The notes under the pieces: model-generated
Databases searched by the model: none
Told to the model about the DNA's origin: nothing
The model's input: only the letters and a program-made list of their open reading frames with translations
Shown: piece after piece, positions 7,531 to 61,597 of the stretch
How positions within the stretch are numbered: the stretch's first letter is position 1
Layout of the letters: each line of letters starts with the position of its first letter
NCBI RefSeq assembly: GCF_003334815.1
Contig: NZ_QOWO01000009.1
From: Escherichia coli
Lineage (GTDB): Bacteria; Pseudomonadota; Gammaproteobacteria; Enterobacterales; Enterobacteriaceae
Length of the DNA stretch: 64,000 bases
Direction: 5' to 3' (one strand)
Translations under genes and position numbers: made by a program

Positions 7531-7647
<117 letters not shown>

Positions 7648-8446: not shown

Positions 8447-8869
8447 TTATTCCCGACCGCTGCGCACTTTGCCGCGCATCGCCTTCACGCTTGATTTTTG
8501 TGCTTTCGATGCCAGCCTGCGCTCTTTCGATGCACGGGTGGGCCGCGTGGGTCGTCGGGCTTTTTTTTCTGTTGTTAATTCTTTAATCATAGCCACCAGC
8601 CGGGCCAGAGCTGCTTCGCGGTTCAGTTCCTGACTGCGGTATTCCTGTGCCTTAATGACAATCACGCCATCACTGCTGATCAAATGATGGCTGGCGGCGA
8701 GCAGACGCTCTTTGTAATACTCTGGCAGGCTGGACGCCCGAATGTCAAAACGCAGATGAATAGCCGTTGAGGTCTTATTAACATGCTGCCCGCCCGCGCC
8801 CTGCGCACGAATGGCGGTGATCTCAAGCTCACCATCGGGAATAGCAACATGTCGGGAAATCACAATCAT
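8447..8869 (-). CDS. arfB: Peptidyl-tRNA hydrolase ArfB (YaeJ), ribosome rescue factor
   Basis: 140 aa; GGQ motif ([10 protein letters not shown]) and a basic C-terminal tail. Confidence 0.93.
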
Positions 8870-9411
8870 GAAGGTTGTTGCCAGGCGGTTAAGTTCACTT
8901 CCAGATTATTCTTATCATCCGATAACCAGATCACGCCATCCTGAATCGTTGCCTGCAGCGTCATGGTACGATCGGCAAAGGCGCTTACTTTCGCCAGTTG
9001 TTCATCGTCCAGATACCAGACGGAAAGATTGGCAAACTGCACACATTTGCTCTGATTTTGCTGCCACCAGATTTGCGCCGCCCGACTATTATAGGTAAAC
9101 AGCGCCACTTCTGCGGCCTGGGTGCAGGCTTTCTTAATCCGCCGCTCATCCGGCAGCCCCAGCTCAATCCACAAATCAATGCCCAGGTGATCGTTACGCA
9201 GCCACGCTTCCGGCTCATCATCGGCACACAAACCACGGGTAAATTGCAGACGTTCATCAGCATATTTCAGCCACGCCAGCAAGCGCAGCATCATACGCTC
9301 CTGGGTTTCTGAAGGATGGCGCGCCAGCGTCAGAGAGGCATCGAGAAACTGGTTGCGGTCGAGATCGGCCACATTAACCGTCGCTTTATAAATTGTCGCT
9401 TTAAGCGCCAT
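8866..9411 (-). CDS. yaeQ: Conserved protein YaeQ, function unknown
   Basis: 181 aa ORF whose stop overlaps the arfB start by 4 nt; N-terminus [22 protein letters not shown]. Confidence 0.9.
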
Positions 9412-9576
9412 AAGAAAACTCCTTTCGAATCAGGAGGCCATTGTAACGGAATACGTGCAGTTGCGGCGCTGATATTGCAGAAATGAGTGTGGTATAGTCA
9501 CCTTGCGAAACAGAGTTTATCTTCGTAGGCTTAGACTTGCATCCACGGTTAAGTCAGAGTGCTGACAGGAGGGCAT

Positions 9577-9777
9577 GTGGAAAAATATTGTGAGTTAATA
9601 CGCAAGCGGTACGCGGAAATCGCCAGCGGAGACTTAGGATACGTTCCGGACGCGCTGGGCTGCGTTTTGAAAGTGCTGAATGAAATGGCTGCCGACGACG
9701 CCCTTTCTGAGGCTGTCAGGGAAAAAGCAGCATACGCTGCGGCAAACTTACTGGTGAGCGATTATGTCAATGAATGA
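9577..9777 (+). CDS. yaeP: Small conserved protein YaeP (UPF0253)
   Basis: 66 aa; GTG start 9577 preceded by AGGAGGG; the track ORF starts at an upstream GTG. Its stop overlaps the rof start. Confidence 0.85.
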
Positions 9778-10024
9778 TACGTATCAACCAATCAATTGTG
9801 ATGATTACGATAATCTTGAGCTCGCCTGCCAGCATCATTTAATGCTGACACTTGAGCTGAAAGATGGCGAAAAATTGCAGGCAAAAGCCAGTGATTTAGT
9901 CTCCCGCAAAAATGTGGAGTACCTGGTCGTCGAGGCCGCTGGCGAAACCCGCGAGCTGCGTCTGGATAAAATTACCAGCTTTAGCCACCCGGAAATCGGT
10001 ACGGTGGTGGTAAGCGAATCCTGA
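9770..10024 (+). CDS. rof: Rho-binding antiterminator Rof (YaeO)
   Basis: 84 aa from the ATG giving [21 protein letters not shown]; overlaps the yaeP 3' end by 8 nt. Confidence 0.9.
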
Positions 10025-10033
10025 TTGACTTTC

Positions 10034-10066
10034 GCCGGATGCGACGTTTGATGCGTCTTATCCGGC
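10034..10066. repeat. Single REP element between convergent rof and tilS
   Basis: GCCGGATGCGACGTTTGATGCGTCTTATCCGGC, an imperfect palindrome of REP type. Confidence 0.8.
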
Positions 10067-10072
10067 TTTCAC

Positions 10073-11371
10073 TTAACTAAGCGTTTTCTGCCAGACAAAA
10101 CTTACGCCATTCTCACCTTCAGCCACACCTTCTTGCGTCACAAATACCCCTGCCGCCGCAATCAGCGTTTCGCCATAAAACAGCAGTGGCGTGGTGTCAC
10201 GTAGCCACGGCGGCACGCCCAGCTCTTGCCAGATTTTCTTTAGCTTACGTCCGCCGTTACGCCCGACAATATGCAGCAATCCTGGCGCTTTGAAACGCAC
10301 GCTGACCGCTTCGTCTGCACGCGGAGGGCGAATATCGCCTCCCGCATTAAGCTGTACACTTCCCAGCCCCGCCGGTAATTCCAGCGGTTGAAGCCACGTC
10401 TGCCACGGCACAATGTTTTCGCTTTGCCCGGTGACGGATTTAATCCACCACAGTTGCGACTGATAGCGTCGGATTTCAAACGCGCCCAAACGTAAACAGG
10501 GTGAGGCATCTTCCCGCGCCAGCGCCACTTCCTGCCAGATCCTCACCAACGCGTCGCGGGAAGGCATCGGTGCATTCTGCCCTGCCAGCCAGCGGCGGAT
10601 AATCGCCGCGCGGCGGGCATCACTCATCGCCAGCATTGGCACAATCTGCAGCGTCCCCTGCGGCGATTGACAGTGTGCTAAATCATCTGCCAGCAGTTCA
10701 TCCAGCAGGCTCTCTTGTTCAGCACAAAGTGCGGCGCTGCGGGCCGTTGCTTCGGCAAAATGCGGCCAACGCTGCTGCAATAACGGCACTACGCGCAGGC
10801 GCAGAAAGTTACGATCGTATGAGTCGTCCTGATTACTTTCGTCTTCAATCCAGCGTAAATCATACTGACGCGCCCACTGCACCAGTTCCCCCCGCGTGCG
10901 GGCGAGCAACGGGCGAATAAGCCGCGTTCCGGCAAACTCCGAGACTTCCGCCATAGCCGAAAGCCCGGCAGGGCCACTGCCGCGTTTTAGCGCCAGCAGA
11001 AAGGTTTCACATTGATCGTCGAGATGTTGCGCGGTGACCAGCACTTCACCGGGCAACAAGGTGCGGGCAAATGCCTGATAACGTGCCTGCCGCGCCTGGG
11101 CCTCAATGCCCAGTCCTTCTTGCGCAAGTTGTACGCGTTCGACCACCAGCGGCACCTGCCACTGTTGGCAGACGTTTTCGCAATGCGTAACCCAGGCATC
11201 GGCATTGGCACTTAAACCGTGATGCACATGAATAGCGCGCAGAGCGACACCCGGATTTTCCGTCCGCCACTGCACCAACTGATGCAGCAGAACGGTGGAG
11301 TCAAGCCCGCCGCTAAAGGCCACCAGAATCTGGCGTGAGGTGAGAAGTTGTCTATTGAGCGTGAGTGTCAT
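10073..11371 (-). CDS. tilS: tRNA(Ile)-lysidine synthetase
   Basis: 432 aa; PP-loop SGGLDS near the N-terminus. Confidence 0.95.
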
Positions 11372-50109: not shown

Positions 50110-50240
<131 letters not shown>

Positions 50241-53127: not shown

Positions 53128-53924
53128 CAATAAACAAAACTCACAGGTGCAGCACCCGCCGGATGCGGCAAAATACCCATCGGGATGCCATAAATCATTT
53201 CGAGGGTTTCGCCGCGCATAATTTCCGCAGGCGTTCCCTGAGCAATCATTTCACCGCCGCGCAGGGCGACCAGATAATCACAGTAGCGTGCCGCCATATT
53301 GATATCGTGCAACACGGCAATGACCGTCAGGCCACGCTCCTGACTTAAACGGTGCACCAGCGACAGCACATCAACCTGGTGGGCGATATCCAGCGCCGAG
53401 GTCGGTTCGTCGAGCAACAGACAACGGCTATCCTGCGCCACCAGCATGGCGATCCACGCCCGCTGACGTTCGCCGCCAGAGAGACTATCGACCAGCCGAT
53501 GCGCCAGCGGTTTTAAGCCAACCAGCGAGATAGCTTCCTCGACTTTTTCGCGATCTGCCGCCCCAAAGCGCCCCAGCGCGCCATGCCACGGGTAACGACC
53601 AATCGCCACCAGTTCACGCACGGTCATCCCTTCTGCCGGAGGAAGCTGCTGCGGCAAATAAGCCACTTTGCGGGCAAACGCTTTGCTGCTCCAGCTTTCC
53701 AGCGGTTGGGCATCAAGAAGAATCTCCCCTTCCGACGGCGGCTGATGACGGCCAAGCATTTTGAGCAGAGTGGATTTACCAGAACCGTTGTGACCAATCA
53801 GACCGGTCACTTTCCCGGCAGGAAAGGTTAACGACAGCGGATGCAAAAGCGTGCGCCCGGGCACACGAAAGGAGATATTACGCAGTGCAAAAGTGGTATC
53901 GGAATGATTCGTGTATTCCTGCAT
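53127..53924 (-). CDS. fhuC: Ferric hydroxamate ABC transporter ATPase
   Basis: 265 aa from MQEYTNHSDTTFALRNISFRV; Walker A GHNGSGKST; the stop overlaps the fhuD start by 1 nt; the track ORF is extended by 14 codons. Confidence 0.93.
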   Translation of the reverse strand: MQEYTNHSDTTFALRNISFRVPGRTLLHPLSLTFPAGKVTGLIGHNGSGKSTLLKMLGRHQPPSEGEILLDAQPLESWSSKAFARKVAYLPQQLPPAEGMTVRELVAIGRYPWHGALGRFGAADREKVEEAISLVGLKPLAHRLVDSLSGGERQRAWIAMLVAQDSRCLLLDEPTSALDIAHQVDVLSLVHRLSQERGLTVIAVLHDINMAARYCDYLVALRGGEMIAQGTPAEIMRGETLEMIYGIPMGILPHPAGAAPVSFVY

Positions 53925-59167: not shown

Positions 59168-61597
59168 TTACGAATACTTTTTCGTCCGTCGCGTCGGTGC
59201 AGTATTTGCCGGGTCGTCCGGCCAGACATGTTTGGGATAACGCCCTTTCATCTCTTTTTGCACCTCACGGTACGCTCCTTTCCAGAAGGCGCTCAAATCT
59301 CGTGTGATTTGTAATGGCCTTTGGGCAGGTGAAAGCAACTCCAGCACCAGCGGCACGCGCCCCTGGGCGATCGTCGGATTGGTGGCCTCGCCAAACATCT
59401 CTTGCATTCTCACCGCCAGCGCGGGCGGGTTATCTTCATGATAACGAATGGCGATCCGGCTTCCCGTCGGCACAGTGTAATGCGCAGGCAATTCACTATC
59501 CAGACGTTGCTGCATTCCCCAATCAAGTAATCCGCGTAGTGCCTGATAAATGTCGAGTGATTTCAGGCCGCGTAGTGAATGTACGCCAGTCATATGTGGC
59601 AGCAGCCACGTTTCCAGCGCTGCCAATAAACTTTCATCATCAACCGCTGGCCAGTCATATTCCGGCAACCACTTTGCGGCGCATAACAAACGCAAGCGTA
59701 GCTGTTCCGCTTCCGCCGTCCAGTTGAGCACGCTTAAACCTTTATCACGGATGCCATTAAGCATCGCCTGATGCAACTCGTCTTCTGACGGTTTCGCCAG
59801 CGGCTGCACTTTCACCGTCAACTGACCGATTTGTAGCCGACGCCAGGCTTTCAGCGTACCTTGCGCGTCATCCCACTCCACAGTGTCAGACTGCTGTACC
59901 AGCTGCGGGCAGCGTTGTACTAACTCATCAATATCGACCAGCAGCGCCAGTAAAATCCGCGCATCCGGCGAGGCGCTGCCCTGCAATAATAACGGTGCGA
60001 TCAACCATTCGTGGCGGCTTAGCGCGTCGTTGGCATCGAGCATCGCTCCCATGCCGTTTGCCAGTTGATAGCGTCCATCTTGCCCACGGCGACGAGCAAT
60101 GCGATCGGCAAACGCCCCGGCAAGTAGCGGCGCGATAAGCGAACTGTCTGCCTCACCGCCACGTACGTTTAAGCGTTTTAACAGTTGCTGACTACGTTGC
60201 TGCCAGGCTGGTTGATTGCGCGAAAACGCCACGCCCAGGTCACTATTGCCCATCCGTGGCGGCTCTTCGAGAATGGCGGCAATTTTTGCCGCGGTAGCAG
60301 CTTCGTCGTCGTTCTTCGCGCTAACCAGCATTGCCGCTAAACGCGGATCGTTACCCAGCGCTGCCATTTTTTGCCCTTGCGCACTAAGCCGTTCACCCTC
60401 CAGTGCCCCCAGCATTTGTAACAGACGTTTCGCGGCCAGTAGATTCACTACTGGCGGTTGATCCAGCCAGCTCATCTGCGCCGGATCGCTGCATCCCCAT
60501 TGCAGTAATTCCATCAGCAAACCGGAAAGATCGCTTTGTAAGATCTCCGGTTCACTTTGCGCCGCGGCGCGTTCTGCTTGTTCTTTGGCGATTAAATGCA
60601 GGCTGATACCCGGCTCCAGACGCCCGGCGCGCCCGGCACGCTGCGTCATGGATGCCTGGCTAACGCGTTGAGTAATCAGTCGCGTAAGCCCCGTGCGCGG
60701 ATCAAAACGCGCCACACGCTCCTGGGCACAATCCACCACCAGACGAATACCTTCAATGGTTAAACTGGTTTCAGCAATATTGGTCGCCAGCACCACTTTG
60801 CGCATCCCTTGCGGTGCCGGGAGGATCGCTTTTCGCTGATCGTTCAGCGACAACGCGCCATACAGCGGGCAGAGCAATACATCACTGCCGATGCGCGAAG
60901 CCAGTTGTTCCTGCACACGCTGAATTTCTCCGACGCCAGGTAAAAATAACAGTAATGATCCGCTTTCCTGACGCAGCATTTCAGCGGTGGCTACCGCAAC
61001 GGCATCGTCAAAACGCTGATGCGCGGGCAGCGGTAAATAACGGCGTTCAACCGGAAACGAGCGCCCTTCTGAGATGACGACAGGCGCTTCTGGCAGCATT
61101 TGCTGCAAGCGGTCGTTGTCCAGGGTAGCCGACATAATCAGCAGTTTAAGGTCATCACGCAGACCTTGTTGCACATCGAGTAACAGCGCCAACGCCAAAT
61201 CCGCCTGCAAGCTGCGCTCATGAAATTCATCAAGGATCACCAGTCCAACACCGCTCAGTTCCGGGTCACGCTGGATCATGCGCGTCAGCACGCCTTCGGT
61301 AACCACTTCCAGGCGGGTATTCGGCCCGACGCAGTTTTGCGCACGCATCCGGTAGCCAACGGTATCGCCTGGCTTTTCGTTAAGCAGCTCCGCCAGCCGT
61401 TGCGCGACGTTACGCGCCGCCAGACGACGCGGCTCCAGCAGGATAATTTTCCCGTTAATGCCGGGATGCGCCAGCAGTTGCAGCGGCAGCCAGGTTGATT
61501 TCCCGGCCCCGGTCGGCGCACTTAATAATACCTGCGGCGCACAATCGAGAGCGGTAAGTAATTCAGGTAAGACGGCAGCAACGGGCAACGACGACAC
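59168..61597 (-). CDS. hrpB: ATP-dependent DEAH-box RNA helicase HrpB
   Basis: About 809 aa if translation starts at the GTG at 61597 (…SSLPVAAVLPELLTALD); the track ORF is 15 codons longer; Walker A GAGKST and DEFH motifs are present. Confidence 0.88.
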   Translation of the reverse strand: MSSLPVAAVLPELLTALDCAPQVLLSAPTGAGKSTWLPLQLLAHPGINGKIILLEPRRLAARNVAQRLAELLNEKPGDTVGYRMRAQNCVGPNTRLEVVTEGVLTRMIQRDPELSGVGLVILDEFHERSLQADLALALLLDVQQGLRDDLKLLIMSATLDNDRLQQMLPEAPVVISEGRSFPVERRYLPLPAHQRFDDAVAVATAEMLRQESGSLLLFLPGVGEIQRVQEQLASRIGSDVLLCPLYGALSLNDQRKAILPAPQGMRKVVLATNIAETSLTIEGIRLVVDCAQERVARFDPRTGLTRLITQRVSQASMTQRAGRAGRLEPGISLHLIAKEQAERAAAQSEPEILQSDLSGLLMELLQWGCSDPAQMSWLDQPPVVNLLAAKRLLQMLGALEGERLSAQGQKMAALGNDPRLAAMLVSAKNDDEAATAAKIAAILEEPPRMGNSDLGVAFSRNQPAWQQRSQQLLKRLNVRGGEADSSLIAPLLAGAFADRIARRRGQDGRYQLANGMGAMLDANDALSRHEWLIAPLLLQGSASPDARILLALLVDIDELVQRCPQLVQQSDTVEWDDAQGTLKAWRRLQIGQLTVKVQPLAKPSEDELHQAMLNGIRDKGLSVLNWTAEAEQLRLRLLCAAKWLPEYDWPAVDDESLLAALETWLLPHMTGVHSLRGLKSLDIYQALRGLLDWGMQQRLDSELPAHYTVPTGSRIAIRYHEDNPPALAVRMQEMFGEATNPTIAQGRVPLVLELLSPAQRPLQITRDLSAFWKGAYREVQKEMKGRYPKHVWPDDPANTAPTRRTKKYS

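Follow-up and report, generated by a model that had tools for sequence, protein, structure and literature searches.

Only a few protein inhibitors are known for Rho, the essential termination factor. Rof belongs to them and is toxic if overproduced (Said et al., bioRxiv 10.1101/2023.08.30.555460). In E. coli K-12, its gene forms an operon with yaeP, which Said et al. (2024) drew in Fig. 1E of their Rof-Rho cryo-EM study. The same study describes rof as a gene without a Shine-Dalgarno (SD) sequence that overlaps yaeP by 8 nt, gives Rof starts that yield 84 or 86 residues, finds the overlap always present in Enterobacteriaceae, and terms the REP elements that bracket the locus "insulating". In a screen published in mBio in 2022, yaeP and rof were cloned jointly because of their overlap, and coupling was suggested. 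In that screen, rof alone caused the termination read-through phenotype, and overproduced YaeP was without effect on read-through.

We compared this operon with the corresponding locus in the window, a stretch of 64,000 nt of E. coli DNA. The 1001-nt stretch at positions 9300-10300 of the window matches several E. coli chromosomes with 100% identity and was found in 5425 of 5426 complete E. coli genomes, with the RefSeq labels yaeQ, yaeP, rof, and tilS. The genes are located as follows:

8866-9411, minus strand: yaeQ, a 181-aa ORF (RefSeq yaeQ); divergent neighbor and first gene of yaeQ-arfB-nlpE
9577-9777, plus strand: yaeP coding sequence (RefSeq); 66 codons with a GTG start and the stop TGA at 9775-9777
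9764-10024, plus strand: rof coding sequence; 86 codons from ATG 9764 (PGAP, PDB 1SG5) with the stop TGA at 10022-10024
10073-11371, minus strand: tilS, a 432-aa ORF (RefSeq); convergent with rof

The divergent yaeQ-yaeP intergenic region is 165 nt long, and the rof-tilS spacer of 48 nt contains an imperfect palindrome (10034-10066). An earlier note on this DNA had named yaeP, rof, and tilS and placed tilS convergent with rof; these gene identities agree with the RefSeq annotation and the literature, and tilS indeed lies on the minus strand.

The Rof protein scored 181.5 bits against the NCBIfam model NF008636 (Rho-binding antiterminator; cut-off 117) over model positions 1-86, and belongs to the Rof/YaeO family (Pfam PF07073). 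It is identical to PDB 1SG5 and 8W8D, and to 8PTM over residues 4-86. YaeP scored 137.4 bits over residues 1-66 against NF003436 (UPF0253; cut-off 99) and is identical to PDB 5H1N, which matches residues 1-66 with E = 1.4e-38; PF06786 is the precomputed match of YaeP homologues. The RefSeq names, these PDB matches, and the NCBIfam scores above the cut-offs identify the locus as the bicistronic yaeP-rof operon of E. coli described earlier, and the model with the promoter, coupling, and REP-bounded end that we propose for it below is probable.

The AlphaFold2 model of YaeP (pLDDT 90.4) is a three-helix bundle with a Foldseek TM-score of 0.92 to 5H1N, and Foldseek with this model returned no match at E ≤ 0.001 besides this own structure. 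The YaeP family is small (36 clusters at 50% identity in 1.8 billion representatives). In two contexts examined beyond the rof-linked lineages, yaeP begins with ATG and is not accompanied by rof, where the picture of the more distant contexts rests on three look-ups. YaeP therefore has some Rof-independent role. A functional partnership between YaeP and Rof has no support so far.

For the comparison between species, we used the best 80 loci of a YaeP profile scan, which correspond to 80 species, all of them Enterobacteriaceae. The GTG start at 9577, proposed in the earlier note, is in frame and is followed by 66 codons up to TGA 9775-9777. GTG is found at this position in 78 of the 80 species and ATG in 2. 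The strong SD sequence that had been seen upstream of this start is present as AGGAGGG at 9567-9573; GGAGG stands at fixed spacing to the start in 80/80 species, and AGGAGG in 75/80. The elements at the start are:

9567-9572, plus strand: yaeP Shine-Dalgarno sequence AGGAGG, read directly; four bases upstream of GTG 9577
9575-9579, plus strand: AUGUG, in which an out-of-frame AUG at 9575 (7-codon ORF MWKNIVS) overlaps the yaeP GUG at 9577

Upstream of the GTG, the first in-frame stop is TAA at 9550 and the ORF is open from 9553, which would allow YaeP to start at GTG 9559 or CTG 9562 as a 72- or 71-aa protein. An NTG codon is found at position -15 in 77/80 species, and the available part of the INRI-seq data contains a strong in-vitro peak that is attributed to "CTG -15" of yaeP (71.8; 5/5 replicates). 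Such an upstream start is nevertheless extremely improbable. Neither GTG 9559 nor CTG 9562 is preceded by an SD sequence, only 25/80 species have a start codon at -18 (GTG 9559), and in 34/80 nothing between the upstream stop and the yaeP GTG could serve as a canonical in-frame start. The -15 CTG belongs to a conserved CUGAC arm beside the SD sequence, and the Ribo-RET signal in vivo at "CTG -15" is 0 in the available part of that data set. Moreover, diverse YaeP homologues align from Met1, and both PGAP and PDB 5H1N use the 66-aa form. The INRI-seq peak at "CTG -15", as given in the available part of the source, is an observation that the yaeP-rof model leaves unexplained. The supplements of the TRAINSPOTTER N-terminomics study list neither yaeP nor rof.

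At the start codon, 73/80 species have ATGTG, and 4 have GTGTG. Kohl et al. (2022; NAR, PMC9841429, Table 2) listed yaeP as one of 18 "atGTG" genes, whose annotated GUG is overlapped by an AUG; the yaeP entry gives the SD sequence AGGAGG, a DtoStart of 12, an abundance of 94.5 ppm, and the ambiguity "no". Their study also showed that AUGUG sites can be ambiguous. This result, the retention of ATGTG, and the unusually conserved third positions of yaeP codons 4-6 (1.00, 0.99, and 0.95) speak for a dual start, where part of the ribosomes use AUG 9575 and the 7-aa MWKNIVS would modulate yaeP-rof translation. The spacing argues against it. The characterized ambiguous sites of Kohl et al. have a spacing of 12/14, reporters with a spacing of 10/12 initiate solely at GUG, and the optimum of the aligned SD spacing is 13-14 (PMC9841429). 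By our own count in the convention of Kohl et al., AGGAGG 9567-9572 lies at an aligned spacing of 10 to AUG 9575 and of 12 to GUG 9577. In contrast to the ambiguous sites, with their DtoStart of 12/14, yaeP has the 10/12 spacing of the exclusive-GUG class and, by this analogy, is expected to initiate at GUG alone, as also predicted by its non-ambiguous entry. In addition, T at -1 and A at -2 may have been retained for a different reason, e.g., leader pairing. A dual start is thus very unlikely. GUG 9577 would start YaeP, with AGGAGG so close that the out-of-frame AUG 9575 would be unused because it is too near to the SD sequence. Overall, the GTG 9577 start of yaeP is well supported by comparison and mechanism.

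The overlap between yaeP and rof had been given as 8 nt. This length applies when rof is read from ATG 9770 (overlap 9770-9777), which leaves 84 codons (UniProt, PDB 8W8D), but it is only one option, as ATG 9764 (86 aa; used by PGAP and the NCBIfam model) results in an overlap of 14 nt. We aligned 79 full-length rof sequences (78 loci and the window). ATG 9764 and the Ser codon 2 are kept in 79/79 of these Enterobacteriaceae sequences, and rof has 86 codons from the first ATG in all 79. ATG 9770 is kept in 77/79 and is replaced with ACG in two species (loci L013 and L021). The 86-residue start of Rof is therefore at least as likely as the 84-residue start. On the yaeP side, the gene has 66 codons and TGA in 80/80 species, and the spacing between this stop and the AUGs is invariant too. 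The overlap itself is conserved in 80/80 species, and the two genes show the same-strand stop/start overlap and weak downstream SD sequence that are expected of a translationally coupled pair. The overlap is part of a longer conserved element:

9748-9777, plus strand: invariant 30-nt block TTACTGGTGAGCGATTATGTCAATGAATGA, the rof initiation region; yaeP codons 58-67, with conservation taken from 78 unique sequences

This block contains the SD-like GGTGA (9753-9757), ATG 9764, ATG 9770, and the yaeP stop. The majority base is at 1.00 everywhere, including the third positions, except at two positions in codon 65 (0.95 and 0.97). The other third positions of yaeP are at 0.41-0.97, and only 3 of the 57 other codons have an invariant third base. 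Invariance begins 16 nt before ATG 9764; dual coding alone cannot explain it. In a genome with a YaeP of only 64% identity, GGTGAGCGA, both ATGs, and TGA all recur, and the gene caller picks the 14-nt overlap. As judged from this conservation, the yaeP-rof overlap is genuine and strongly selected.

The sole SD-like element for rof is GGUGA, which is weak and distal. It can pair with UCACC of 16S rRNA, with an aligned spacing of 17 to ATG 9764 and 23 to ATG 9770 (own count). Since the rof AUGs lie in the invariant block with this weak, distal GGUGA and near the yaeP stop, Rof synthesis is probably tied to yaeP translation, either via termination-reinitiation or via unmasking. Termination-reinitiation would be the most economical mechanism for such coupling, as inferred from the arrangement of these elements: ribosomes ending yaeP at UGA 9775-9777 would stop 5-11 nt past the rof AUGs at 9764 and 9770. 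Coupling would hold the toxic Rho inhibitor Rof low and proportional to yaeP.

The available part of the INRI-seq data, obtained on isolated synthetic fragments, shows weak initiation at both rof AUGs, with RPF values of 8-12 for the annotated ATG and of 7.9 for the one at -6. This initiation occurs without yaeP translation, so that some independent initiation is possible. Rof could even be translated independently altogether, from GGUGA and AUG 9764, with the overlap reflecting only genome compaction and a dual-coding constraint. Besides the use of both AUGs on the isolated fragment, the pairing of GGTGA 9753-9757 with UCACC and the invariance of the 16 nt upstream of ATG 9764, which are not dual-coding, are in line with this explanation. 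We consider it rather unlikely, as the in-vitro signals are low compared with hundreds for neighbors such as yaeR, and as the spacing of 17 exceeds the optimum of 13-14 (Kohl et al. 2022, PMC9841429). Furthermore, Said et al. (bioRxiv 10.1101/2023.08.30.555460) scored rof as a gene without an SD sequence, and the yaeP stop codon and its distance to the AUGs are invariant in 80/80 species. The Ribo-RET signal in vivo, in the available part of that source, is zero at both rof starts, which points only to low expression. Coupling of rof to yaeP translation is thus our preferred reading.

Two further elements were considered at this junction. A hairpin masking the rof start (9752-9790) was rejected because its folding energy does not differ from that of shuffled sequences (z = -0.02) and its 3' partners vary without compensation. 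An internal rof promoter (CTGACA + TATTGT, 9562-9591) is a mere consensus match within the yaeP initiation region and has no support.

In the yaeQ-yaeP intergenic region, the earlier note had pointed to an extended -10 element, TGgTATAGT. The motif exists, but it is located at 9490-9498 and not at 9494-9502, i.e., 4 nt from where it had been placed. A consensus scan returned it as a TGn element followed by a TATAAT-like hexamer. The elements upstream of yaeP are:

9469-9498, plus strand: candidate sigma-70 promoter of yaeP-rof; -35-like CTGATA (9469-9474), 18-nt spacer, and extended -10 (9490-9498)
9505-9576, plus strand: predicted 5' leader of ~70 nt, a phylogenetic footprint
9542-9581, plus strand: hypothetical anti-start helix, in which UCCACG(G) (9542-9548) pairs with UGUGGA (9576-9581) and covers the GUG; minimum-energy fold of the E. 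coli leader

TGnTATAGT is present in 77/80 Enterobacteriaceae and also in a distant locus (L083). The footprint in the spacer consists of TGGTATAGT and the next 35 nt (9499-9533), conserved at ≥95%. This conservation supports TGgTATAGT as a promoter candidate. Transcription would most likely begin ~7 nt after the extended -10, and the yaeP-rof promoter would stand back to back with the yaeQ-arfB-nlpE promoter.

Within the leader, a hairpin formed by GUCAG (9553-9557) and CUGAC (9562-9566) abuts the SD sequence and is 92.6% paired in 57 unique leaders. The anti-start helix has 89% of its cells paired in the same 57 leaders, compared with 24-41% when the partner columns are slid, and one of its pairs (col40-85) is CG in 37, UA in 10, UG in 8, and unpaired in 0. 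However, the support for this hypothetical helix is weak: it was derived from E. coli itself, its covariation comes from one pair and perhaps reflects one or two lineage events, the folding z-scores of the leader are only -1.3 to -1.7, and RNAalifold on the 57 leaders gave essentially no consensus structure (-0.5 kcal/mol). No Rfam family matches the leader or the yaeP-rof junction.

To place RNA 3' ends on the locus, we used the Term-seq tables of Adams et al. (2021). Window positions were calculated as 223702 minus the MG1655 coordinate and checked on the rof and tilS ends. Three ends were found on the plus strand:

9586 (MG1655 214116), plus strand: abundant RNA 3' end in yaeP codon 4; 205,301 reads in the tab of another growth condition (Adams et al. 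2021)
9647 (MG1655 214055), plus strand: RNA 3' end 70 nt into the yaeP ORF; LB OD 0.4, 69,842 reads (Adams et al. 2021)
10071 (MG1655 213631), plus strand: "primary" 3' end of the rof mRNA, 5 nt past the REP stem; LB OD 0.4, 23,469 reads (Adams et al. 2021)

The full-length yaeP-rof mRNA ends at the REP, and truncated 5' fragments outnumber it. The end at 9647 is not Rho-dependent (Rho score 0.33, "No") and has an intrinsic terminator score of 1.06 (Adams et al. 2021). The end at 9586 lies 5 nt after the proposed anti-start helix in the local sequence AU|AUU. We infer that it may result from an RNase E cut or be linked to the helix. AU|AUU presumably fits the sequence preference of RNase E.

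The leader could be an undescribed cis-regulatory element that gates the Rho antagonist. The helix would hide the GUG, the untranslated mRNA would be cut at 9586, and opening of the helix by a signal would turn on YaeP and then, by coupling, Rof. In that case, the helix would also explain why GUG is kept rather than AUG, and cutting of the untranslated mRNA at AU|AUU would yield the abundant short 5' fragments of the Term-seq data. As a whole, this model of the leader is unlikely. It is weakly supported and the only part of the analysis with some novelty.

REP-stabilized mRNA 3' ends are known, e.g., at the malE-malF REPs. Liang, Rudd and Deutscher (2015) reportedly found that REPs located no more than 15 nt from a stop codon reduce the translation of the upstream gene. 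The single REP palindrome between rof and the convergent tilS, noticed earlier, was borne out, with 13-nt arms and a stable fold:

10034-10066, no strand assigned: REP palindrome, separated from the rof stop by 9 nt and from the tilS stop by 6 nt

The arms (10034-10046, GCCGGATGCGACG; 10054-10066, CGTCTTATCCGGC) are 85% complementary and enclose a 7-nt loop. The element folds at -22 kcal/mol (z = -4.3), with 0/200 shuffled sequences as stable. It agrees with the pattern of REPs, which are imperfect palindromes of ~35 nt outside genes with the arm motif GCC(G/T)GATG..., and a sub-threshold match to Rfam naRNA4 covers it (27.9 bits compared with a gathering score of 59.5). The 64-kb window contains 8 REP-like matches (≤2 mismatches) compared with 3.1 expected, and 4/100 shuffles reach 8; the copies at 7588-7626 and 50114-50198 form pairs. 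Within the species, the 131 nt around the REP were found in at least 5239 of 5426 E. coli genomes, and one strain has an interrupted REP.

The REP does not have the form of an intrinsic terminator, a G+C-rich stem with a U-tract behind it, as it is followed by UUUCACUU without a U-tract, and a terminator scan made no call here. In related genera, the rof-tilS spacer differs. Escherichia has one REP, Salmonella a REP-like hairpin, and Citrobacter mostly two REPs. In Klebsiella, Raoultella, Enterobacter, Kosakonia, Atlantibacter, Buttiauxella, Shimwellia, and others, the spacer contains a G+C-rich hairpin, GGGCAGC...GCTGCCC(G)TTTT, which is often flanked by A- and T-runs, as in a bidirectional intrinsic terminator. 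In the distant locus L083, the GGGCAGC stem is the same but the T run is absent. From these spacer sequences, the E. coli REP occupies the place of the putative terminator hairpin of the related genera.

The transcript ends 5 nt past the REP hairpin. As the REP has no U-tract and is not called as a terminator, the rof 3' end after it may reflect exonuclease trimming rather than termination. Alternatively, the REP could be a neutral remnant of a mobile element with no role in the expression of rof or tilS. It is confined to Escherichia, with other REP/BIME versions in Salmonella and Citrobacter and none in most genera, and its interruption in one E. coli strain points in the same direction. In contrast, the main 3' end of the rof mRNA lies directly after its stem (Adams et al. 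2021), it takes the position that a terminator-like hairpin has in relatives, and it is fixed in nearly all of the E. coli genomes counted above. Neutrality is rather unlikely.

All main points of the yaeP-rof anatomy are already in print, and our finding adds nothing alone to that anatomy. Three small points could guide experiments on the control of Rof: the conserved rof initiation block, the 86-residue start, and the conserved leader with its truncated 5' fragments.

Compared with the malE-malF REPs, the element described here is likewise a stem-loop just 3' of a stop codon, with a mapped RNA end a few nt after the stem. Unlike those REPs, it is single and lies between convergent genes, and its effect is putative. 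Inside the locus, the closest parallel to yaeP-rof is yaeQ-arfB, also a co-directional pair with a stop/start overlap and a downstream gene without an SD sequence. There, yaeQ overlaps arfB (8447-8869) by the classic 4-nt ATGA (8866-8869), whereas the yaeP-rof overlap is 8 or 14 nt long and contains two candidate AUGs. The operon of Said et al. (2024) is the same locus, with a divergent promoter, yaeP followed by rof, the 8-nt overlap, and flanking REPs, and nothing differs in substance. Beyond that description, our comparison adds incrementally the conservation of each nucleotide, the better retention of ATG 9764, and the relation of the REP to the terminator hairpins of related genera.

The 5′ part of yaeP yields abundant RNA 3′ ends. 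Term-seq (Adams et al. 2021) places such ends at window 9586 and 9647, within the first 70 nt of the gene, and the 3′ end of the full-length rof transcript was 3- to 9-fold rarer than these ends. With a transcription start near 9505, this would imply stable 5′ fragments of ~82 and ~143 nt. By sequence reading, the site at 9586 is AU|AUU. In 79 Enterobacteriaceae, the block at 9499–9533 of the yaeP leader (CACCTTGCGAAACAGAGTTTATCTTCGTAGGCTTAG) shows conservation of 95% or more, which exceeds what a promoter requires. A search of Rfam with this block returned zero family matches, and no clear structure was found for it.

At the yaeP start region, INRI-seq (Hor et al. 2022, Table S3) assigned a strong in-vitro ribosome peak to the CTG codon at −15 (window 9562–9564), which was not seen in vivo. 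An NTG codon occupies this position in 77 of 80 species, and in the window it falls within the CUGAC arm (9562–9566) of the small hairpin abutting the yaeP Shine-Dalgarno sequence. Module A2 of the sRNA OmrA matches a motif in a set of mRNAs that includes yaeP (9577–9777; 2018 BMC Genomics), a computational association only.

The yaeP–rof junction contains one further possible start.

9774: third ATG, forming ATGA with the yaeP stop codon; third frame, 22-codon ORF to 9842

This ATG is invariant only because of its position inside the dual-coding block, and is therefore probably incidental.

Nearer to yaeQ, the divergent intergenic region carries a conserved block upstream of that gene.

9437–9451: conserved block CCATTGTAACGGAAT; the minus strand reads TACAAT

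The TACAAT lies ~25–30 nt upstream of the yaeQ ATG and is probably the yaeQ −10 hexamer, so that the yaeQ and yaeP promoters would stand back to back. Further along the minus strand, the yaeQ stop and arfB start share a 4-nt ATGA overlap (8866–8869), also described by Said et al., making yaeQ/arfB a second overlapping pair, across the divergent promoter from yaeP/rof.

Besides the REP palindrome between rof and tilS (10034–10066), the window holds additional matches to the REP arms.

7588–7626: REP-arm matches, an inverted pair between nlpE and yaeF
50114–50198: REP-arm matches
53158–53170: REP-arm match
59957–59969: REP-arm match

The inverted pair at 7588–7626 is the other REP "bracketing" the yae locus. 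In E. coli strain GMF054 (NZ_CM183924.1 near 3875245; matches H12 and H26), the alignment was interrupted within the loop of the rof–tilS REP, at window ~10051, and continued at another place of the same record. This suggests that the REP carries an insertion, perhaps an IS element, in this one strain.

In L084 (2501–2898), a locus from another genome in which yaeP and rof are unlinked, yaeP starts with ATG. A DUF4250 gene follows directly, its start using the final base of the yaeP stop codon (TAATG). There, yaeP again tightly abuts a small downstream gene, the partner being DUF4250 and not rof.
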